From Candidatus Brocadiia bacterium (lineage in GTDB: Bacteria > Planctomycetota > Brocadiia > SM23-32): DNA of 37,439 bases. Made by a program: the position numbers and the translations under genes. Positions 19,649 through 30,634 of the stretch are shown here, piece after piece (the stretch's first letter is position 1; the number at the start of each line of letters is the position of its first letter). The notes under the pieces were generated by a model. That model was given only the letters and a program-made list of their open reading frames with translations. It was not told where the DNA came from and ran no database searches. The stretch spans positions 1-37,439 of the forward strand of contig JBKHIT010000051.1 of assembly GCA_046538485.1 (NCBI GenBank), in the 5' to 3' direction.

Positions 19649-20048
19649 CAACCGCTCTCAGCCAAAAATCCGGGCTAAAAAAACAGCGCATAAAACCTGG
19701 GGCAGATGCTCAATCCAGCGGTGCCGTTGTTCCGCAAGTATTTCCCTGGCACCGCTTGCATTCGCATCACATAGATATGTAGTATGGCCGATGGTAAAAT
19801 TCATTCCTTCATCTGGCCCCGGTTGGGCCACTATGAACATACTGAACCCCATTAGGCCAAATTCAAACGATCGAAAAAGCGTCGAAGCTCACTTTCGCCA
19901 TACAAGACATTTCATATACCTGCCTGATAGTGTCCAGCGCATTCGTTTTACTTCCCGACTGTGCTGATGAGGATGTACAAAGAGAATATCCGTGTGATGG
20001 CTACGCAACCTTTCACCTTCCCCAAAAATACTCACAAGGAATCGACTC

Positions 20049-21032
20049 ATGGCCGAAGAACTGGCACGCGTTCTGCACGTCCTTCAAATATCTCTGCCAA
20101 TATTCGCCCTCATCGGCCTGGGAACCGTGCTGCGCCGTGTGGGCATGGTCGGACCACAAATTCAAGGTTTCCTCAGCAGTTTTGTCTATCGTATCTGTCT
20201 GCCCGTTATCATTTTTTTTGCCATTGCGCCCGAAGACTTTGGGAATATGCTCAACGGCGCCGTTATCGGCGCGACGTTGACGGGGGCAGCTTTGACCGCC
20301 GTCATATTCTGGCTTCTGAGCATCCGGATTCCGGATCGCGCGCGTGCCCCGCTGGTGGTCAGCACGTTTTTCGCCAACACGGCCTTCATCGGATTCCCCC
20401 TCGTGCAGAGCGCATATCCCGAAGACGGTATGATGTACGCCAGCATCATCAATGCCGTTGCCATGCCCATCTACTACATAGCCAGTGTACTCCTGCTGGA
20501 GAAAGGTGAAGAGGAGCACGGCCGGATCAAATCAGCCGCCATCGCTGCATTGAAAAATCCTGTGTTGCTCGCCGCCGTCGCTGGCCTCATTGCATCCGCC
20601 CTCCTGCATGAAATCGGCCTCTTGAAGACAGCCCAAAACTGGCCTGTGGTGCCCGAAGCGACCGGCATCATCATGGATACCGCCGGGATGATCGGGAAAA
20701 TGGGACTGCCGCTGGCCCTGATAACTGTCGGGGCGTCCTTGAAATTCAGCTATCTGCGCAGCCACCTGAACTGGATGTCCATGGGATGCGCAGGCAAACT
20801 ACTGGTGGCGCCCTTTCTGGGGCACGTGATCTGTCTGATAGTGTTCCCCGACATGCAGCGAGCGGCCCTCGGTAGCACGGTGCTGCTGCTGGGATGTCCG
20901 ATGGCGGTGGGTATCTACATCATAAGCCGCGAGATGGACGTAAACGACGATTACATGGCCGGAGCTCTCGTGCTGAGCACAGTCCTGGCCGCCGCAAGCA
21001 TAACGTTCTGGTTGTACGTGCTTGGTGTATAA
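20049..21032 (+). CDS. AEC (auxin efflux carrier) family transporter
   Basis: LPIFALIGLG, FANTAFIGFP, KNPVL, PLALITVGASL, KLLVAP motifs; AAGGA RBS. Confidence 0.92.
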   Translation: MAEELARVLHVLQISLPIFALIGLGTVLRRVGMVGPQIQGFLSSFVYRICLPVIIFFAIAPEDFGNMLNGAVIGATLTGAALTAVIFWLLSIRIPDRARAPLVVSTFFANTAFIGFPLVQSAYPEDGMMYASIINAVAMPIYYIASVLLLEKGEEEHGRIKSAAIAALKNPVLLAAVAGLIASALLHEIGLLKTAQNWPVVPEATGIIMDTAGMIGKMGLPLALITVGASLKFSYLRSHLNWMSMGCAGKLLVAPFLGHVICLIVFPDMQRAALGSTVLLLGCPMAVGIYIISREMDVNDDYMAGALVLSTVLAAASITFWLYVLGV

Positions 21033-21171
21033 AAAGTCATCCGGGCTTTGAGAAACCACATGTTAGGCGCCGTCCGGACGCCGTAGCGTTAGCTGACTCC
21101 TTTCAGGCTCCTGTCGTCTGGCGAAAATGCGTGGCCCCGGACCTAACTGGCCCGGCCGTCATTCTTGATGC
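21031..21171 (-). ncRNA. Candidate structured non-coding RNA (unassigned family)
   Basis: Nested stems CCGGGC/GCCCGG (21041-46/21150-55), GTTAGG/CCTAAC (21062-67/21142-47), TCCGG/CCGGA (21073-77/21137-41); upstream minus-strand promoter and a T5 run at the 3' end. Strand not certain. Confidence 0.4.
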
Positions 21172-21177
21172 GCGACG

Positions 21178-21206
21178 ATATTAGCTGTTCATGTGTATAG
21201 TGTCAA
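21178..21206 (-). promoter_or_regulatory. Putative sigma70 promoter facing the candidate ncRNA
   Basis: Minus strand TTGACA (21206-21201), 17 bp, TAATAT (21183-21178). Confidence 0.55.
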
Positions 21207-21338
21207 GTCTTTTTTGACGGGAGCTCAGGGGTTTTTTGGGGAAGTTCTTTGCAGATAATGCTTTGCGGAGGACAGAAATATTTTCTTCTTTGCGATCAGG
21301 AATCGGCGAATTCGTGACACGATCAGTTCGCCGCATTA

Positions 21339-21442
21339 TTTAGCGCCATTTTTCACGGGGTAAAAAGCCCCTTTAACGCCATATACGCACCCCTGTTTTG
21401 TCGTAACCACTTACTCAGAATGCCGATATCGTGGTCCGACCC
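21339..21442 (+). repeat. Element-end motif copy A (about 105 bp, ends TGGTCCGACCC)
   Basis: Same spacing of YTTA, TAA, TTTTGTC and TGGT boxes as the copies at 23152, 25571 and 22912 (minus). Confidence 0.75.
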
Positions 21443-21450
21443 AATAGTGT

Positions 21451-21727
21451 GCACGTGGGATTCCATGATCTCAGCGATCACTTCGTCCTTTTTGGCGAGC
21501 TTTTTCTTCAGCGCCGAGACTTTTCTTTTGAGCTTTCTTTCCCGGCTGCCGTTTTTAGTCTCGAATGCGGCTGCTCCCTGCTCAAAAAAACGTTTCTGCC
21601 AGCGGTAGAAAAGATTGGGATTCAGATCGTACTCGTCGCAGATATCAGAGACCGTTTCGTTCTCCAGCAGGTGTCGCCGGAGGATTTCGACTTTCTTTTT
21701 TCCAGAGAAGTTTCTGCGCTTGGCCAT
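21451..21727 (-). mobile_element. IS3-family transposase OrfA (HTH) fragment
   Basis: MAKRRNFSGKKKVEILRRHLLENETVSDICDEYDLNPNLFYRWQKRFFE plus a leucine-zipper-like tail; no OrfB; truncated a few bp from motif A. Confidence 0.8.
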
Positions 21728-21997
21728 AATGCCGTGCTGCAGCCGCGCCAACATGATTGAATCAACCAGCCGATTCATGCCCCTTATTTTTGCCAGCCGA
21801 AGAACTTCTTCTTCATTTATCAGCTCCGGGTTTTTAGCCAGTAACACGACCGCCCCGTGCAAGTCGTCTGTGCGTATAGCCTCCCTTATCTCTTCTAATT
21901 GATTGTCTGCTGAATCAGCGGCATACAGGCTCAAACAGACATGCACGAACAGTATGAGAGTAAGAAGAAGGTCTCTACAATTCCGTGATGTAGACAT
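21728..21997 (-). pseudogene. 5' part of a putative exported immunity protein (ankyrin-like start), interrupted by the IS3 fragment
   Basis: GGGAGG RBS, ATG 2 bp after the toxin-like stop, signal peptide, IREAIRTDDL..V.LLAKNPELIN. Confidence 0.5.
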
Positions 21998-21999
21998 CT

Positions 22000-22806
22000 T
22001 TATTTCTTTACCTCCCTTTGATACCAGTATCTCAAATATAAAGCCCCGTCCCGCATTCGACGGTGATCATCCCATTTTACTCCTCCCCCGCCTGGATGGG
22101 AATAGGGACCGATTCGTTTCTGGGCGTTTATATCGGACCAAAAATCCACTTCGCTATTCACTAACTTCGGGTACATTAATGCTGTGGAGTCATCGTAATC
22201 CGCCCGGATTCCCAAAGCATGGGATATTTCGTGGGCCAAAATAGTACCCAGTTCCCGCTTAAAATACGCCCGCCCCGGAAACACTGTGCCAAATTGCATG
22301 CCGCTAACCAAAACCAAAGGCTCACGGTTTGGTATATAACCTAAGGCATATCCAGCAAAATTCTCCGTCTCACCGCCCCCTGTTAGAATTCCATAATAGA
22401 AGATAACATCCAATGTGTGCCAATAATCATCATCCACTATCTTACTCAATGTGGACCTGTGAGCGTCGTTTGAGATGTCGATTACATCCCGTAATCCTTC
22501 TGGCTCTGTCTTTTCCTCAATCTTACCTGCCACAACGATCCTCACACCAATTTGTGCAAACACCTTGTTCGCGTATGAGATAGCATTATTGATCAATGCG
22601 GGGTCAACTTTCCTAGCCCTCGGTGGTATACCGTTTCTGGGATCCACAAGCGTAATTGGGCGAATCCTGAGAGTAATAGTTTCATGTTTGTGCGAACTCG
22701 GACCATTAATTACTTCCGAATTAAGACTGTCGGTTTCAGGAAGGAAAACAGGAAAGCTCTGTGAAACTGTGCCTGAGAAGCAGGAAAGGCGGACTATGTC
22801 CGGTAA
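22000..22806 (-). pseudogene. 5'-truncated metzincin-like metallopeptidase domain (probable polymorphic toxin C-terminus)
   Basis: HEISHALG and Met-turn LMYP; frame is open from the element end at 22806 to 22000 with no upstream ATG/RBS; visibly AT-richer than flanks. Confidence 0.6.
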
Positions 22807-23256
22807 GGGGGACGTACCATCGCATCTCGTTGCTCAGGATATCGTTACGTATTTTAAGGGGCCTCTCAGAGGGCTTAGAAGCGATTTTCACCCCCCTTAA
22901 ATCAACTGTAAGGCGGCGATACCTCCTGTGCGCGCCATGTGCTCTCCTCGTCCTTCTCCACCGGGGCGAGTTCAATGCGCCGCCGACCGAGCCGGCCTGT
23001 CTCATGGCAGAAATCATACGCGCATTTTACCGGCTGGGGGGCGGATTTTAAAGAATTACTGCGGGAGAACGGACAATACCACAGGGGAATGAACGTTTGA
23101 TGCCACGTCGGCGGAGATCATTTGCCAGCGGCAACGTGTGGTGAGAAACAGCTTACAAGCCGAAAACGCCCCCAAAAAACGGATTTAAGGGGCATATAGA
23201 GGGGCCTTTTTGTCACAAATGGCGGTTCGGCAGACTTTTGCTCTGGTCCGACCCCC
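22807..23256. mobile_element. 450-bp miniature Y1-HUH transposase element with terminal inverted repeats
   Basis: Ends GGGGGACGTACCA and TGGTCCGACCCCC (11/13 inverted match), each part of an about 105-bp motif; interior keeps TATGAT-ATG 23005 and a 29-codon tail (LGRRRIELAP...WRAQEVSPPYS, 22991-22902). Confidence 0.65.
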
Positions 23257-23481
23257 TATACCCCAACTACGGCAACGACCGAACGGACAGCGATCAGAGG
23301 GCAGATGTCAGTGATGGCTACGGCGGCCGGCTTTTTTCCCGTTCGCGCGGCGGGAGACCTCGGGGCGATGGTAGGGTATAAGCCCGGTGCGGAAAATATC
23401 ATCGAGTGATAACCGGGTGCAGGGGACTGATCGAACGGCGGGTCAACGATTGCGATCTTGGGTGCACTCAAAACTCACAAT

Positions 23482-24285
23482 TCAGAAGTGCCGTTTTGCT
23501 GGGAGATGCGGGACGTATTCGTTGAGCAGTATGGCGAATGCTTCCTCCACATCATAGGTAACGCCCGGCCGGAGGAGTTGTTTCACGTCATTCCGGAAAT
23601 GTCGGTCTTTCTTCTTCTCCAGCATATTGTCTTCGTAAACGTTCCCTGAAATGTCCAAACCCTGGTGCTGCATATATTCGAGAAACAGTTCGCACACCCG
23701 CTCAGGTGAGATATCTCTGTTGTTGTGAACGAACCAGAGATCAAACAAATCCCTGCCCTTATTGCGCTGATACAGCGCCCGTAACTTTGTTCCCATCAGT
23801 TCGTTCAGGGTAAATGTTGGAATCTTTTCCTGCCCTGAAAACCAGGGGTTATCCACCGACAGTTCGCGTTCCTGCACGCTTTCAATCGCAAAATGTTCCC
23901 TCGTGTTGATTTCGACCTTCAGTCGCTGCGTCCTCCCGGTATTTTCCGCCTCGTAATCGTATTTGAGGGTGATCGAACGGTGTTTTTGATCATAATCCGG
24001 CTCACCCAACCACGGATCCAGAATCTCATGGATTCTGTCAAGAGAGCCTCCGATCGGTTCCTGTGCCAGCTGAACAAGGTCGATGTCTTCGGAATAGCGC
24101 ACGGGCTCAGCGATGTGCAGCTTGTTAAGTGCCGTTCCCCCGCGCAGGAGAAAACGGTCCCGCAGGTAAGAAGTCGAAAACAATTGCAATAACGCCCTGG
24201 TGAGAACCAGGTCGTGTTCGACCTGCTGGTCCGAAGCCCATGGCGCGACGGCACGCCACGCCGTTATGTAGGCGTCCGGGATCAT
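23482..24285 (-). CDS. abiEii: Type IV TA toxin, AbiEii/AbiGii nucleotidyltransferase
   Basis: QVEHDL, LRGGTAL-K, RYSEDIDL, KVEINTRE, KLRAL-QR-KGRDLFDL; ATGA overlap with the antitoxin. Confidence 0.93.
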   Translation of the reverse strand: MIPDAYITAWRAVAPWASDQQVEHDLVLTRALLQLFSTSYLRDRFLLRGGTALNKLHIAEPVRYSEDIDLVQLAQEPIGGSLDRIHEILDPWLGEPDYDQKHRSITLKYDYEAENTGRTQRLKVEINTREHFAIESVQERELSVDNPWFSGQEKIPTFTLNELMGTKLRALYQRNKGRDLFDLWFVHNNRDISPERVCELFLEYMQHQGLDISGNVYEDNMLEKKKDRHFRNDVKQLLRPGVTYDVEEAFAILLNEYVPHLPAKRHF

Positions 24286-25085
24286 GCGTCCGGCTCCAGT
24301 TGATAGTTGACAATGACCTCCCACTTTTTGTTTCGTTCGCCGTTGCCGTAGCCCATTCCGGGATGCAGCTTCACCCGGCTGGGATTTCTCCCTGCAAGCC
24401 ACTCAGCCAGAGGCTCCACCAAAGCGCTCTTGCCAAGGAAATCCATGATGTATCCAAATCGCTGGATGATGGAGTGGTAGGGCATAAGTCTGGCGACGCG
24501 TTTGAGTTCCTTCTCGTCGAGCGTTTCCGCCAGTTCGCTCAGGATAGTGGCAATGTTGTCGAATCCTCCGGCGGCGTCCGGGAAACGAAACAGGTCATAC
24601 GCCGTGAGTTCGGGGGTAGATACATTCACCGTCCCCGTTCGGGTGTTTTTCTTTTGCTCGGGAAGGGCGTGAAGATTCTTCACAGTGTGGAACTCAACGG
24701 CCACTCGCGCCACCTCGATAGAATCCGTTTGCGTATCGGTGACGACCTGAAAGACCTGTGGTCGTTGGTGAGCGGCGCCGAAGATTCCAGCAGCCGATAG
24801 GATCCCGACATAGTAAGCCTGGTCCAGGTAGCGCATCAAGTCGTCGATGAACCATTCAGCTGGCAGACAGCCGGCTGATTGATACTCGAGGGTCACGATG
24901 ACATAGAACCCCTTTTTGAGCGCCGCAATTCGCCCTTTCCGGGAAAGTCTGCTCAGTGCCACTCGGATGGCGTCTTTGGACTGAGACAGCTTTTCATAAC
25001 ATTCGGCCGTTGAAAATGTGTACCGGCCCCGGCTTTGGAGGTAATCCACATAATCCGGGACCGACAGGTTTGCAGTTTTTTTCAT
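24282..25085 (-). CDS. abiEi: Type IV TA antitoxin, AbiEi family
   Basis: LQSRGRYTF, KGFYVIV-LEY, YYVGILSAA--FGAAHQ-PQVFQV, VSTPELTA-DL; upstream of abiEii. Confidence 0.92.
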   Translation of the reverse strand: MKKTANLSVPDYVDYLQSRGRYTFSTAECYEKLSQSKDAIRVALSRLSRKGRIAALKKGFYVIVTLEYQSAGCLPAEWFIDDLMRYLDQAYYVGILSAAGIFGAAHQRPQVFQVVTDTQTDSIEVARVAVEFHTVKNLHALPEQKKNTRTGTVNVSTPELTAYDLFRFPDAAGGFDNIATILSELAETLDEKELKRVARLMPYHSIIQRFGYIMDFLGKSALVEPLAEWLAGRNPSRVKLHPGMGYGNGERNKKWEVIVNYQLEPDA

Positions 25086-25110
25086 GTCTAACCGAGAGGT
25101 CGAGGTTCGG

Positions 25111-25164
25111 GTGACAAGCTGTTATCACATACAGCCAGTATAACGCATATCGTTCTTTTGTCAA
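25111..25164 (-). promoter_or_regulatory. abiE promoter with putative operator palindrome
   Basis: Minus strand TTGACA (25164-25159), 16 bp, TATACT (25142-25137); imperfect inverted repeat GTGACAA-gctg-TTATCAC at 25111-25128. Confidence 0.65.
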
Positions 25165-25221
25165 TATAAGATAGCAAACTGCCAAGCGCAGTTCTTGCTG
25201 GTGGAACACGTAAAGGTATCC

Positions 25222-25673
25222 GGGTCGGACCAAGCGAAGTGGTTGAGATCTGCGAGGGATGCTGAACGCAAAGAAATGACCGGCATCGTCCGAGCAAAGC
25301 TCTCTACGCAATCAACACGCGCAATAAGGTGAACATGATTCGATGTAACGCAATATCCAAAAAGCGAAACCCCGTGTCGCTCACACCCCAGTCTGAGCCA
25401 CTCCCGATAGGCATTTCTGTCCTTGACATACCGCAACAAAAACTCACTGTTCACGCACCTGTGAGTTACGTGATAGGTATATCCTGCCAACATATATCGG
25501 TTTGCTCGTGGCATGATGCTTCGCATAATACCTCAAACACTGCCAGCCCGCAAAACAACCGCCATATCGCCTTAAACGCCCATTACCCCCCCTTCAAAAC
25601 CGCTCTAACGCCCTATATGCTACCCCATTTTGTCATAACGTATTATTAACCATGCAGTTGCTATGGTGACACC
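25222..25673. mobile_element. Second miniature Y1-HUH transposase element (about 452 bp)
   Basis: Ends GGGTCGGACCA (25222-25232) and TGGTGACACC (25664-25673); full end motif at 25571-25673; contains the truncated transposase. Confidence 0.7.
25284..25514 (-). pseudogene. REP-associated-type tyrosine (Y1 HUH) transposase, N-terminal 77 codons only
   Basis: MPRANRY..G-TYHVTHRC...Y--WL...LFGYCVTSNHVHLI (HUH motif); family resemblance stops at SFARTM, before the catalytic Tyr region. Confidence 0.85.
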
Positions 25674-25877
25674 AAAAGGGTCTTGCCCACTTCACGCTCT
25701 TTTCGCCGATTCTCAATAAAACAGGTCGATCCGGTTGCTCACCGCTGTACCGTTCCATAAAGATCCTTTTGTCCTTAAAACCAGTGCCGTTCTGCCTCTC
25801 CCGGGCATATAAAGCTTTACATAGACTTTTACGCCTTTTTGATAATCTTTGATTTCTTCATCTTTAAAAGAGGGCGT

Positions 25878-28800
25878 CTATTTCTGGAGGTTTTTTTCAG
25901 TTTCGGGGATTTCTGTATCTTCTCCTGTACCTCTACCCGCAACGGCTGTGCCCGAGAGCATTTTGGGCTTGACACTGTGGATCAGAAATTGGCCCCGGGT
26001 TGTAATCCCAAATGCATTTTTGTCGGGGAGCGCCCACCCCCGTGGCATCGACAGAGACGAGAGTTTCCCCTGCCAGCAAACATATTTTTCCCCTTCGAAT
26101 TTACTCCAAATCCCGACGTTGCCCTAGCACTCTCCACAATGACATCGACGACGTAAGTTTTGTCGGTCTCTACATCGGGTGGTGACAGGGGTTCCGTGCC
26201 CTTTCCGTCCACGAAACACAGCCCAGCTTTGCTTCCATGGAAGGACAAAACTTCAAGTTTCACCTGTTGGTCCCTTGCGACAGGCAACACAAGCCCGAGA
26301 GTCTTTCGCCCTCCTATATACGAAAACTCTACCCTAAGGATATAGTTACCATGCGGGTGGACCGGTAACACAATACGTCCCTGCTGCGTGCCACCGTCTC
26401 CAAAAAAGCCCATCACGACGACGTTCCCAATTTCCAAAGACGGTGTCTTTATCAGGACTGACAAACTTGAGTAGTTCGCCTGTTTTGAATTGCCTCTCGT
26501 TCTCTTCTCCTTCGGTTTCTTCCTTATATCCAAAACTATACATGGCGGGCAGGTTTACCTTCGTGTGATCATTGGGATCATATGAAAACCTGGATGGTGG
26601 TGAGGGATAGGGAAGAGGCCCCGGTAAACCAGTGGCCAGGTTCGTCTGTGTATTCCCGGTGGCAACCAGATCAACCAGCAGCGACCCCACAGCAGGGAAA
26701 ACAGGTTGCTCCTCCAGAGTCATATGCATGAATTGTGTGGGAACGCCTGTTATTTTCTCCGAACTGCTGGAAGCAAACAGCGGCGTATCTCCACCTTCTG
26801 CTTTAACCGTCCCAGTGAAATGAATGCCGTCCCATCCCACGTAATCCACACCTTTATCGGTTGTCAACGACGTCCCCGACTTCCAGGCGGGGCCCTCGGC
26901 TCTGGATAACAGTTGGATAGTTTTGGCCCCCACATTCATTTCGCCCTGCGTGTTCAGATCGCCAATCGAAGCGGTATTGCCCGCAGAAATCCTGAGATCG
27001 CCCAGAACCGTCATCTTGTCGTTCTGCGTCATGCGCATGTCGCCGCCAGCGTCGATCTCAACGTCCGTCCCCGACACAGGGGTATAAATCATGGCGATGT
27101 CTAACGGTGTATTCTGGGCGGTGTTGAATTCGATATCCCCTGCTTGACTCAAAAGTTGGACGACACCAGAGGAAGCGGCAGAATCGGAGAGTGCAATGGT
27201 CCCCACGTAGCTCTGCTTACCCATTGTGTGGACAATGCCACCTGCGACATTGATGTGCGCGGCGGTTATGCTCATAGCATTCAGTAAATCGTTAGCACCA
27301 ACTGTGTTCCCGAACGTCACGTCACCGGCGCCTGCTTCAAGAATGAGGGGATCGTTGCTACCCGCATCATCAAGTAGACCGGCGAAAGTAACGTCATCGG
27401 CAACGCCGCCACCGCTTTGCACCGTGATTGTGTTGCCGCCGGCACGAAGACTCGTTGCACCCGCAAACCGGATCAGCCCACCGCTCCTGTATGTGGCCCC
27501 GTCAAGATGGATATTATCAGATCTTAGGTCGACTGTTCCGACGGTGTACAGATCCTGCAGCTCTGCCGTGCCCGCGCTACTTATGGTCAGTCCGCCGAGC
27601 GCCGAATTGCCTCCCACCGCGTTCTGCAGATTCACATCACCGGCCCCGGCGATCAAATCCAGCGTGTCATTGCTGTTCGGATCATCTATCAGTCCGGTGA
27701 ACGTAATGTCATCACCGGAACTGCCACCGCTCTGCACCGTGATTGTATTACCGCCCGCGTGCAAATCGGTGTTCCCGGCAAATCGAAGCGAATCCGTGGC
27801 GCTAAGATAAGTAGTCCCGTTCAGTCCAATGCCGCCCGCTGTGATATCCATCACGCCGATCACGGAGATATCATTCAGATCAGCAACGTTCGCGCTACTT
27901 ACTCTCAGCAGACCGAGCGCCGAATTGCCTCCCACCGCGTTCTGCAGGTTCACATCACCGGCCCCGGCGATCAAATCCAGCGTGTCATTGCTGTTCGGAT
28001 CATCTATCAGTCCCGTAAACGTAATGTCATCGCCTGCACCGCCACCGCTCTGCACCGTGACGGTGTTACCACCCCCGTGGAGATTAGTTGCGCCCGCAAA
28101 CCGGATCAAATCACCGAAACTATTGTAGGAAGTCCCGTTCAGGTTGATATTGGCGCCCGTGATTGACTGCGTTCCCGTTGTGGTCACATCCAGAACATCC
28201 ACCTGGTTGGCCGAGGAAACGATCAGATACTGCAGACCGTCATCATCCGCGCCTGTCTGGTTCCCGCTGCCGCCTCCGACTTCAGCCTCAAAGGTGGTGG
28301 CACCATTCGGGCTATCCACCGTTAGTCCCCAGGAGGAACTCCCGGCTGTTCCATCATCAGCGGCATCAACGAAATCATGGAACGTTATTCCGATGTTTCC
28401 GGTATCGCTGAGGGTGATATCACCATCCAGCAGCACTGGATCATTGAAGGTGATCGCCCCCCCCTGAGCAAAGATATCATTACCCAGCTCCGTCGTTCCT
28501 CCCGCATTCGTGGTGAGAGAAGCCAGCGGAGTCGTTCCGCCCATCGGGCCGTTGATGTCGGTGGTGCCGGTGCTGTTAAGCACGAGCGCGTTGTTGCCGT
28601 CCACCGCACCGTCAAGGGCGATGTTGCCGCCGGACGCATCCAGGGTCAAATTCTGGCTCAGCGCGATGCTGTCACTGAAAGAAATATCTCCATCTGTCCC
28701 GTCATTGTCGGCGTCGCTGTCGATACCAACAGCTCCGCCCGCATTCAAATCCACCGGCCCCGTGAAACTGATTGTCCCATCATCGCTGTTGTAGGAGGTG

Positions 28801-30634
28801 CCGTGGAGGTGGATATTATCGGCCGTTACATCATTGGCTCCGATGGTAAAAACGTCCCGCAGTTCAGCCGTGTTCGCGCTGGTAATTTCCAGGGACCCCA
28901 GAGCGGAATTGCTCCCGGCCGTATCCTGAAAAACAACATCGCCATCGCCCGCCGCGAGGCTGAGCGTATCATTGCTTCCCGCATCATCAAGTAGACCGGC
29001 GAAAGTAACGTCGTCCCCGGATCCCCCTCCGGTGGTAATCGTGGTCAGATCTCCCGGTATATACAGGTGAGTATGCCCATCGAAACGGAAAGAACCGCTG
29101 TTGCTCTGATACGTGTTTCCGGTCAGACGGATATCGCCAGCGGTCACATCCATTGAACCGAGCAGGTATATATCAGCCAGATCGGCTCTGGTTGCGCTGG
29201 TCACATTCAGAGCACCCAATTTATCCCGACCACCTGTGACGCCCCGCAGCTCCACATTACCATCCCCCGCGGTCAGAGTAAGGGCCCCACCGGAAGCATC
29301 TTCTATATTACCTTTGAAAATAATATCATCACCGGTTCCAGCACCATTCAAAATATTGGTTGCGCCTCCGGGCATAAACAGAACGGTATTTCCGTTGAAA
29401 AGCAACGATTGGTTGATACTGCGATATGTGTCTCCGTAGAGGCGAATCCAGGTCCCATCCGCTGTTACGTCGACCGGCCCCAGGCAATACACATCATGCA
29501 GATCCGTGGCAGACGAGCTGGTTACGGTCAGGCTGCCGAGCGCTGAATTGGCACCAGCCGCACTCTGTAAATCCACATCTCCACTTCCGGCCACCAGCCG
29601 GAGGTGATCATTGGTGCCCGGATCATCAACCGGACCGGTAAAGACAATGTCGTCTGCCGAACCGCCACCACCGGTCACGGTGAGCGTGCTGCCGGATTGC
29701 AACTTCGTTGTCCCATCGAATATCACATGGGAACTACTGCTCGTATAAGTCGTTCCGTTCAGATAGATGTTGTCGCCGTTCACATCAATCTTTCCGTTTG
29801 CCGTTACATTCTTCAGGCTTACATTGCCGGACGGTCCGGCGTTTAGCAGAATGCCATGAACTGAACCCGGATCCGCGATTCGCCCGTTTAAGGTGATGTC
29901 ATCTCCGCTTCCGCCCCCGCTGCTCACCGATACCGTTCCACCGCCCGCGCTCAGATCCACGGGGCCATTCAGATACACTCTGCCATAATTACTCCTGTAT
30001 GTGGTGTCATCAAGCTTTATTCGGCTCGCATTAACATCAAGTCTGTTTTGGGTAATCACGTCCTGAAGGCGGGCTGTATCCGTATGCGAGGTTACCAGAG
30101 CACCCAGCGGGTCTCGCCGCCCGGCGTCATCCATCAACCACACATCGCCCTCCCAGCCACCGCCGCCGCGTAGATTCCGCCCACGTCCACCACAGAGCCG
30201 CTGTGGAAGTAGATGCCCGCCGGGTTGGTCAGATACACGATGCCGTTGGCTTTCAGCTGGCCATAGATATCGGTGGCATTCCCACCGATCACCCGGTTGA
30301 GCGACCGGGCGCTGGAGCTGGGCTGGATGAACCGCACGAGTTCCTGTGAGGCAATATCAAAGTCCGAATACTCGATGATGCTGCCGTCGGAGGCGCGGAT
30401 CGTAGTGGTGTCGCCGCTGCGCTGAAAACTGGCCTCACCGCGGACGACGTTCTCCCCCTCCGGTCCTGCCTCAACCGGGGAAAACTGGCCGATGGCTGTC
30501 AGAACCAGAAACACAACACATACCGTCAATAATGAATTTCGCCCGCACGTCCGTTGAGAATACATAAATACATTTCCCGATGAAGAAGTATAGGAATCTG
30601 TTTCTAACTCGTTTTTATTCGGTCGGCTCATCAT
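25878..30634 (-). pseudogene. TpsA / filamentous haemagglutinin-like exoprotein, broken into four frames
   Basis: Signal peptide and TPS domain (LNRV-G...NG-VYLTNPAGI) at 30634-30165; frame switch into Gly/Thr/Asp-rich beta-helix repeats (ORF 30143-26346); further frameshifts at about 26405 and 26125; reconstructed stop at 25880-25878. Confidence 0.8.
27595..28060. repeat. Near-identical about 145-bp direct repeats, 318 bp (106 codons) apart, inside TpsA
   Basis: ccgagcgccgaattgcctcccaccgcgttctgcag... begins at both 27595 and 27913; peptide FTGLIDDPNSNDTLDLIAGAGDVNLQNAVGGNSALG occurs twice. Confidence 0.9.

Follow-up and report, generated by a model that had tools for sequence, protein, structure and literature searches.

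Introduction

RAYT-like genes (RAYT stands for REP-associated tyrosine transposase, and REP for repetitive extragenic palindrome) located between long terminal inverted repeats (TIRs) have been described under the names TIRtron and TIRYT (Di Nocera, De Gregorio and Rocco, 2013; PMC3733652). According to the available portions of that paper, the majority tip motif of the TIRs is GGGGWSAS, and these repeats form moderately abundant families "organized as REPs in dimers or clusters". In the accessible text of a later work, most TIRYTs are equated with TnpA-Y1 subclass 2.1 (Quentin et al., 2018; PMC6006769), which corresponds to RAYT group 1 in the available parts of Bertels et al. (2017; PMC5581495), where the 16-mers flanking the group 1 genes had 12 occurrences. 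As far as the accessible literature goes, no use of the names TIRtron and TIRYT was found in print beyond the works of Di Nocera, Quentin and Bertels. The present report deals with a stretch of 37,439 nt (hereafter, the window, which is the whole of the DNA analysed) from a Candidatus Brocadiia bacterium (GenBank assembly GCA_046538485.1, contig JBKHIT010000051.1, positions 1 to 37,439, forward strand), in which, between positions 21,339 and 25,673, copies of a repeat here called END alternate with an AbiE abortive infection module and other accessory genes; the array is probably an accumulation of copies from a single TIRtron family. To our knowledge, TIRtrons have had no bench study, and neither their transposition nor a cleavage site nor the recognition of their ends has been demonstrated.

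Other described systems that resemble the locus in one trait or another are: (i) REPIN-RAYT systems and bacterial interspersed mosaic elements (BIMEs), defined by 20-40-nt palindromes with a GTAG tag (Nunvar, 2010; Bertels and Rainey, 2011, PMC3116915; Ton-Hoang, 2012, PMC3333891); (ii) the IS200/IS605 family of insertion sequences (IS), such as IS608 and ISDra2, which have asymmetric subterminal hairpins in place of inverted ends; and (iii) integrons, with their IntI integrase and attI and attC sites. Furthermore, orphan arrays at loci of Rhs and other polymorphic toxins, and the adjacent deletions mediated by IS, provide comparisons for gene fragments arranged in series.

Sequences and Models

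Contigs of the source genome (G000; 5.19 Mb) are given as C-numbers and individual loci as L-numbers (L040 is G000:C99, L043 is G000:C95 and L071 is G007:C204). This genome was compared with 30 relatives, i.e., 31 genomes in all, of which the closest to it belong to other genera, at ~66% nucleotide identity. ENDs were located by means of an nhmmer profile and of a second, sequence-only covariance model (R1), at a working threshold of E ≤ 1e-3, and 35 copies were aligned. Contigs assembled from public sequencing runs (X1, X2 and X3) were compared with the window; such run contigs break at every repeat, and those of run X2 do not cover 22008-22675, a gap from which no inference is made. Metagenome scans with the neighbouring Mem_trans protein and with AbiEii as queries found no relative of the locus.

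The END Repeat Family

A sequence-only reading of the window had named five element ends with a TGGT-N4-CC(C) terminus, and all five are in place: TGGTCCGACCC at 21432 (+), 23244 (+) and 25232 (-), TGGTACGTCC at 22819 (-) and TGGTGACACC at 25664 (+). Taken loosely, the motif TGGT-N4-CC barely exceeds chance in the window (28 matches vs 18.3 ± 4.6 in shuffled sequence, with 28 reached in 1 of 100 shuffles). The exact 11-mer tip TGGTCCGACCC has 32 copies in the genome vs ~3.5 expected by base composition, and nearly every tip copy is preceded by ~110 nt of shared sequence, each window end being part of a module of ~125 nt, the END. In order, this module comprises a CTTAG...CTAAG segment, an ATATA or CTCTGAGAG box, TTTTTGTC, ~28 variable nucleotides and the tip, of which three variants occur in the 35-END alignment (TGGTCCGACCCC, TGGTACGTCCCC and TGGTGACACC).

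The nhmmer profile has 81 matches in the genome at E ≤ 1 and 67 at E ≤ 1e-3, spread over 32 contigs, and the covariance model gives 73 at the working threshold. In the window, the profile finds five ENDs only: 21331-21442 (+), 22801-22911 (-), 23147-23261 (+), 25215-25245 (-; the outer 31 nt alone) and 25571-25667 (+). The tips had been placed at the CCC, but the true boundaries are slightly further out (~21450 and 25678), because END copies stay alike for another 4-8 nt, homology to IS3 begins at 21451 and other copies diverge after 25678.

ENDs are strongly clustered. The 67 copies group into 38 clusters, including 11 inverted doublets, and 41 of them have a neighbour within 5 kb vs 12% expected. 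Adjacent pairs are oriented -+, like an element, in 11 cases, +-, i.e., facing, in 8, and in the same direction in 10 (++ in 3 and -- in 7). Many ENDs are solo or form gene-less doublets of 320-530 bp that resemble miniature inverted-repeat transposable elements (MITEs). Direct target duplications are absent at 11 of 11 paired elements, the mirror-image flanks being part of the repeat. A tandem duplication of the tip ("stutter") was seen on C54, C53, C139 and C95.

The Transposase Gene and Its Decayed Copies

Nine matches to Pfam Y1_Tnp are present in the genome, but a single intact gene lies between ENDs (C99:37208-37942, 245 aa). It sits inside a 979-bp element (C99:37118-38096) and is bracketed by an inverted pair of ENDs, one at C99:37113-37232 (-) and the other at C99:37982-38104 (+). 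The same repeat that ends the window elements flanks this gene, which bears out the earlier proposal that ENDs are the termini of Y1/HUH-transposase elements. No other gene was found between a complete END pair free of other content.

The C99 protein matches Pfam Y1_Tnp at E = 7e-13 and, among NCBIfam models, scores best with REP_Tyr_transpos (66.9 bits), its score with transpos_IS200 being 27.7 bits (cut-off 55). The HUH motif (H60-V-H62) and Y120 are invariant across an alignment of 10 homologues, and the Y-motif reads YVDMNM, i.e., Y---NM and not Y---NP. In its AlphaFold model (pLDDT 81), residues 142-214 form a helical C-terminal part to which no family could be assigned. The best match of the model in the PDB is 4er8_A, the REP-associated tyrosine transposase of E. 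coli (E = 1.9e-7, TMt 0.71), and the transposases of ISDra2 and IS608 rank behind it in Foldseek (E ~ 4e-6 to 1e-4). A PDB search with the sequence alone gave weak matches to ISDra2 and nothing else (E ~ 0.03).

At least four decayed copies of the gene are present: in the window (an N-terminal piece and a C-terminal scrap), on C130, on C4 and at C99:44856. Counting the two pieces in the window separately, gene remnants adjoin ENDs at five places.

Distribution across Genomes

According to the covariance model, ENDs among the 31 genomes number 73 in G000, 21 in G007 and 7 in G005, with one marginal match in G025. Besides G000, close homologues of the C99 gene (44-47% identity) were found in a single genome of the other 30, G007, and are flanked there by CTTAG..CTAAG palindromes. 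More distant homologues, of 324-328 aa and with a longer C-terminal tail, are present in G025 and G028. The hairpin part of the END may be its older, conserved feature. At G007:C204 (L071, another genus; 108-261 and 1158-1201), the transposase gene is flanked by a palindrome with a 14-bp stem (CTTAGAAGCGATTTT..AAAATCGTTCTAAG), which tandemly repeated GGGGGCGGCCCTCGATAACCC precedes.

A scan of 596 Gb of contigs with the pattern TTTGTC-N24-34-GGTCCGACCC, which is too loose to say much about host range, yielded loci of which the END profile matched 4 of 80 examined. These four END-like loci come from other phyla, have the same tip and show no transposase nearby.

Nature of the Elements

The likely explanation of the locus is that copies of a single TIRtron family have piled up there. 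The C99 copy contains a RAYT-like Y1/HUH gene with HUH and tyrosine (both window copies are dead); long inverted repeats unlike the GTAG hairpins of REPs enclose it; and the repeats are dispersed as singles, dimers and groups. As in published TIRtrons, tips start with GGGG, the repeats are moderately abundant and come in dimers and clusters, and traits proper to IS are seen, namely decayed duplicates and a patchy distribution. Differences concern the ENDs, which are unusually long (~125 nt), modular and endowed with three tip variants, and the ~70 copies, a high number for the class. The sequence-only reading had taken the array for the best candidate of an undescribed system; as far as the available text of its description goes (PMC3733652), the named class TIRtron/TIRYT accommodates these elements. 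The C99 system is then a known class, arguably represented by an aberrant member, because the tips fit the published motif at 6-7 of 8 positions, no helix-turn-helix (HTH) tail is detected and the ENDs are far longer than those quoted.

In mechanistic terms, the element would consist of a single RAYT-like Y1/HUH (TIRYT) gene between long inverted-repeat ends; in this genome it is represented by an intact master copy of 979 bp, by no fewer than four decayed copies of the gene and by ~70 ENDs. By homology with the TnpA of IS200/IS605 and with the TnpA-REP of E. coli, the enzyme may nick one strand at or near the tips via a 5'-phosphotyrosine link, and END-bounded units would move without target duplication. 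To judge from the family, non-autonomous doublets would be served in trans by the C99 gene. New copies would favour sites next to old copies and DNA that tolerates insertion (3' flanks, defence/toxin islands, other mobile elements), and later recombination or deletion between copies could leave gene fragments against the tips. In the window, the outcome would be that two dead mini-elements and a solo END alternate with AbiE, a gene for a small metalloprotease and leftover pieces of an IS3 and of another open reading frame (ORF). Cargo would be bystander DNA rather than captured cassettes, and what had been described as cargo bracketed by facing ends would simply be the stretch between two neighbouring elements.

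A number of results weigh against this assignment. The 66.9 bits of the C99 protein are under the NCBIfam cut-off for RAYTs, 80 bits, and no C-terminal HTH family was found in it, Y1_Tnp being the sole Pfam match even at E ≤ 5. Read inward, tips compare imperfectly with GGGGWSAS (GGGGTCGG 7 of 8, GGGGACGT 6 of 8, the third tip being GGTGTCAC). RNAalifold gave no consensus structure for the 35 ENDs; the CTTAG..CTAAG hairpin has a mean z of -1.6, with z < -2 in 13 of 35 ENDs, and is significant in none of the four window ENDs tested. By these measures, ENDs fold only weakly for repeats that a single-strand enzyme would have to recognize. In G005 (92% complete, 7 ENDs) no close homologue of the gene was found. 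Finally, as detailed below, there is a modest enrichment of defence genes beside ENDs, and the cut ends of four genes or more coincide with tips. A covariation of G-runs and C-runs in ENDs, read by eye, was dropped since the subtypes were 1-2 columns out of register.

From TnpA-Y1 subclass 2.1, the C99 protein differs in that no DnaA-C, HTH_23 or HTH_28 tail was detected and in its Y---NM motif in place of Y---NP. Like REPIN-RAYT systems and BIMEs, this genome has one resident Y1 transposase and many non-coding copies of its flanking repeat, with inverted doublets as the commonest unit, mosaic clusters and repeats targeted by another IS. But no 20-40-nt GTAG palindrome is present and folding is weak; the doublets, of 320-530 bp and with gene remnants, are deletion derivatives (MITE-like) and not REP pairs; and the gene is neither single-copy nor vertically inherited. 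With IS200/IS605 the elements share the HUH/Y1 catalytic fold and the lack of target duplications, but the ENDs are inverted and the IS200 score is below the cut-off.

Organization of the Window

As had been proposed, the window contains two miniature elements and one solo end. They lie in the interval that separates the Mem_trans gene (20049-21032) from a gene for a giant protein (26346-30143). The solo END, E1 (21331-21450, +; nhmmer E = 9e-23), is of "c-type", i.e., as found 5' of the intact transposase gene; its tip TGGTCCGACCC occupies 21432-21442, its boundary lies at ~21450 and it is 86-90% identical to C99:37994-38096 and C130:64-166. Its inner side abuts a repeat of ~290 bp, repeat X (21051-21341, strand not assigned), which is unlike the END module and has copies, 88-92% identical, at C134:56481-56772, C81:53-326 and C139:28687-28950. 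An Rfam search of repeat X gave no match. On C139, repeat X lies 39 bp from the interior module of another END.

Beyond the tip of E1 comes an internal fragment of an IS3-family orfA (21451-21728, -; 278 bp, first ~92 codons), with a match to Pfam HTH_Tnp_1 (E = 2.7e-10) and 80% amino acid identity to a copy on C129. This fragment is devoid of 5' untranslated region, inverted repeat, frameshift site and orfB. A run contig of 287 nt (depth 205) covers exactly 21451-21728 and has other sequence on both sides. A truncated ORF of 90 codons (21729-21997, -), which begins with an N-terminal segment resembling a signal peptide, is fused in frame to the IS3 fragment; no Pfam family and no paralogue in the genome were found for it. 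Next to it is a small, probably complete, gene for a metzincin-like metallopeptidase with the HExxH motif (22000-22647, -; ~198-215 aa), whose Pfam matches (Peptidase_M10/Reprolysin_3, E ~ 0.007-0.01) are below the cut-off. Its look-alikes in the atlas are stand-alone metalloproteases of 159-250 aa (feature scores 0.92-0.96, TM 0.58-0.64), and PADLOC gave no match for it. The pair formed by these two ORFs had been interpreted as a toxin C-terminal domain with its immunity gene. Nevertheless, the sub-threshold metallopeptidase matches and the stand-alone look-alikes do not bear out the former, and the supposed immunity gene is actually the 90-codon signal-peptide ORF fused to the IS3 fragment. 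Cargo ORFs had also been described as cut at the ends: this is true of the IS3 piece, which stops at E1, but the frame upstream of the metzincin-like gene simply runs open through the next END, E2, and gives no sign of a cut. Over 21500-22999, the segment of the metalloprotease and the IS3 piece, G+C is 47-49% vs 52-57% in the flanks, a low value consistent with a foreign origin of that segment.

The first mini-element opens with E2 (22801-22911, -; nhmmer E = 1.1e-8, covariance model E = 1.6e-15), of "b-type", i.e., as found 3' of the intact gene, with the tip TGGTACGTCCCCC at 22807-22819. It is followed by (i) a remnant of the transposase C-terminus, residues 213-245 (22899-22994, -; tblastn 51.5% identity, E = 5e-5); (ii) a multicopy interior module of ~150 bp (22992-23140, strand not assigned); and (iii) E3 (23147-23261, +; nhmmer E = 9.8e-18), with the tip TGGTCCGACCCCC at 23244-23256. 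The interior module has ~15 more copies in the genome (77-94% identity), on C8, C103, C139, C83, C1, C12, C58, C115 and C44, often without adjoining ENDs, and loose contig ends lie at 22992 in runs X2 and X3. E2 and E3 make up a 446-bp doublet, 88% identical to C99:32975-33370.

Between the two mini-elements lies an intact AbiE module, as the sequence-only reading had recognized. AbiEii, the nucleotidyltransferase toxin of this abortive infection system, a type IV toxin-antitoxin (23482-24285, -), matches Pfam PF08843 (E = 3.8e-38) and PADLOC (E = 5.6e-99, profile 1-260 of 260); AbiEi, its antitoxin and regulator (24282-25085, -), matches Pfam PF09407 (E = 2.9e-33) and PADLOC (E = 4.1e-91) and overlaps AbiEii by 4 nt. 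Both genes are adjacent and full length.

In the second mini-element, E4 (25215-25245, -) retains no more than the outermost 31 nt of an "a-type" end, with a match confined to positions 97-127 of the nhmmer profile (E = 7.5e-4), and adjoins the middle part of a dead transposase gene. It is 93-96% identical to tips on C95, C75, C68 and C43, and the C111 paralogue of the element lacks it. The dead gene keeps the transposase N-terminus, residues 1-86 (25257-25514, -; tblastn 54.7% identity, E = 1e-29; Pfam Y1_Tnp E = 6e-6, profile 5-79 of 121), with HUH retained and the catalytic tyrosine gone, within an ORF that spans 25161-25526. Hence, the RAYT-like remnants formerly noticed in both ~450-bp elements are confirmed by tblastn. 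The element closes with E5 (25562-25678, +; nhmmer E = 3.7e-8, R1 E = 1.5e-15), whose tip TGGTGACACC lies at 25664-25673 and whose boundary is 25678, where loose contig ends also lie; the copy of this E5 element on C111 diverges past ...CACCAAAAG. The paralogue of this second mini-element (C111:421-648) is 93-98% identical, and the paralogues of both mini-elements differ partly in their boundaries.

The stretch 22807-25678 was considered as one TIRtron split by AbiE, a view with which the order and strand of the two gene remnants agree; it was rejected because the halves have separate paralogues, whose boundaries are distinct. Likewise, excision was rejected as the cause of a joint 25325->25497 in runs X1 and X3, since this joint is the paralogue on C111. 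Rfam gave one match over 20500-26500, at chance level.

Neighbours of ENDs and Alternative Explanations

The alternation of ENDs with AbiE and other accessory genes is real, and similar arrays occur on C99 (Rhs fragments) and C95 (SoFic). Elsewhere in the genome, accessory neighbours of ENDs include Rhs fragments, two SoFic genes, RmrA-like, PD-Lambda-3_A and GmrSD-like genes and a retron-type reverse transcriptase. Ordinary neighbours include pyrBI, DHODH, sulfatases, GH130 and N_methyl genes, and most END-adjacent genes are whole.

An enrichment of defence genes beside ENDs had been proposed as a check, and was assessed on 38 END clusters ± 3 kb (220 kb, 184 ORFs of at least 120 aa) vs 38 random length-matched windows (170 ORFs). 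At PADLOC E ≤ 1e-10 no enrichment appears in these samples (18 of 184 END proteins vs 15 of 170 controls, p = 0.86), the matches being mostly generic domains (ABC ATPase, ankyrin, HEAT, MotB). With a strict criterion, set after the output had been seen (E ≤ 1e-15 with a profile coverage of 70% or more), 10 proteins in 8 of 38 END loci stand against 2 proteins in 2 of 38 control loci (loci, one-sided p = 0.043; proteins, two-sided p = 0.037, both post hoc), and both control matches (MotB-like, DprA-like) resemble housekeeping genes. Defence genes are then modestly enriched by the strict criterion and not at all by the loose one, which leaves the claim unrefuted. Such an association is expected for any mobile repeat that piles up in variable regions.

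The genes cut exactly at tips, at least four, are the IS3 piece of the window, two Rhs pieces on C99 and a Flavodoxin_2 gene (C68:4429) that lacks the first 114 profile positions. On C99, an N-truncated Rhs gene starts 8 nt from the tip at L040:9114 and an Rhs C-terminus enters the tip at L040:10250-10292. Two histories fit these cuts: copies, of which there are ~70, may have recombined after insertion, or the enzyme may have joined DNA one-sidedly. In L040 (5533-11701), two N-truncated Rhs C-terminal modules stand in series, with an intact TIRtron and a solo END between them, and a 543-aa ORF without known family follows the second module. As in orphan Rhs arrays and IS-mediated adjacent deletions, N-truncated Rhs C-terminal modules are in series and gene fragments lie against tips; the C99 junctions differ from those in being occupied by TIRtron ENDs, either as makers or as later settlers. 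In L043 (755-3862), two SoFic-type Fic genes occur in tandem (PADLOC E = 1e-121 and 1e-125; mutual identity 30%), each followed by a 185-bp END unit. The two units are 95.7% identical, and the first tip has an 18-nt tandem duplication.

The second of the two histories, in which tips are active breakpoints and the transposase, or host repair at its nicks, joins a tip one-sidedly to foreign DNA, is considered unlikely. If true, it would account for gene truncation, END stacking and the turnover of conflict genes such as Rhs, SoFic and AbiE in END-rich islands, and would amount to a single-strand-nuclease route to the remodelling of defence islands, looser than an integron but mechanistically specific.

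A domesticated repeat of the REPIN/RAYT kind is distinctly unlikely. Here ENDs would be intergenic elements retained by the host (terminators, mRNA stabilisers, protein-binding sites) and maintained by one resident transposase. One intact gene copy vs ~70 ENDs agrees with it, as do the many ENDs just 3' of genes (the stop codon of the second C95 SoFic gene falls within a tip), the several END subtypes in which a GC hairpin precedes a T-run (e.g., GCCCCTC-TGA-GAGGGGC, -7.8 kcal/mol) and the END-like modules of other phyla mentioned above, at 4 of 80 loci without a nearby transposase. Nevertheless, the gene has at least four decayed copies and, of the 31 genomes, no more than 3 are clear holders of ENDs, a patchy distribution; out of 35 ENDs, the terminator-like hairpin reaches significance in 5 only (mean z -0.2); ENDs interrupt genes and other mobile elements too; and, at 125 nt, they have neither the GTAG tag nor the strong palindrome that define REPs.

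The sequence-only reading had favoured an integron-like platform, in which ENDs serve as recombination sites, and toxin and defence genes lying between facing ends are cassettes to be captured, excised or shuffled by a Y1/HUH nuclease. As in integrons, single genes or gene pairs, conflict genes among them, are separated by short repeats; arrays of gene(s) plus END recur (the window, the Rhs modules of C99, the SoFic pair of C95); toxin or defence genes occupy 3 of the 6 "+-" intervals longer than 700 bp; and the strict PADLOC counts and the genes cut at tips would also agree with capture. But ordinary N_methyl genes fill 2 of the 6 long facing intervals, all four relative orientations of ENDs occur with no excess of facing pairs, the window ENDs run +,-,+,-,+ and the repeats are dispersed on 32 contigs, many beside housekeeping genes. 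The first cargo is a mosaic of three unrelated pieces, one junction of which (21728) is not at an END, and the "toxin" seems complete and stand-alone; hence, some of the "cassettes" would be fragments. Defence enrichment depends on a criterion chosen post hoc. Both window transposase copies are dead and the sole intact one is on another contig, each cargo is single-copy in the genome, and the 7 ORFs scanned in 20049-26533 contain no recombinase family and no integrase/attI/Pc promoter unit. No published precedent for such a platform was found. Taken together with the mostly whole neighbours, this makes capture very unlikely.

Finally, that ENDs belong to a conventional DDE-type IS or MITE family, with the Y1 gene as a mere passenger, is hardly credible: the inverted repeats are as in classical IS and ENDs do lack strong hairpins of the kind on which Y1 enzymes are known to act, but target-site duplications are found at 0 of 11 pairs, the Y1 gene alone lies between complete ENDs and leaves remnants beside them at five places, G007 has both ENDs and close homologues of the gene, and the arrangement is that of the published TIRtron definition.

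Read as a TIRtron pile-up, the genome is a good specimen of its class, with one intact gene, ~70 modular ENDs, three tip variants, miniature derivatives, no target duplications and genes cut at tips. END repeats account for many contig breaks, truncated genes and "cassette-like" patterns in the variable regions of this genome, and such patterns at ENDs do not warrant the claim of a new gene-capture system without strain-level evidence.

Other Observations

Three remaining run-contig joints, at 18081, 19659 and 27912, fall outside the region under study. At one of them, just 5' of the Mem_trans gene (19659-19709), 49 nt are replaced by 1314 other letters in an X2 run contig from another study; strains differ at this site as well.

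Some IS are known to home to REPs. Another multicopy insertion sequence of this genome, with an end of sequence GTAA[CA][TA]ATTCGGTAAAGTGCG, occupies 17 contig edges and one internal site (C92:47031). The edges include C46:19161, C53:46, C70:14570, C84:48, C104:47, C130:46 and C139:31920 (+11 others). At 7 of the 18 sites, this sequence lies within a TIRtron tip or ~10 nt at most past it, and it seems to home to the END repeat.

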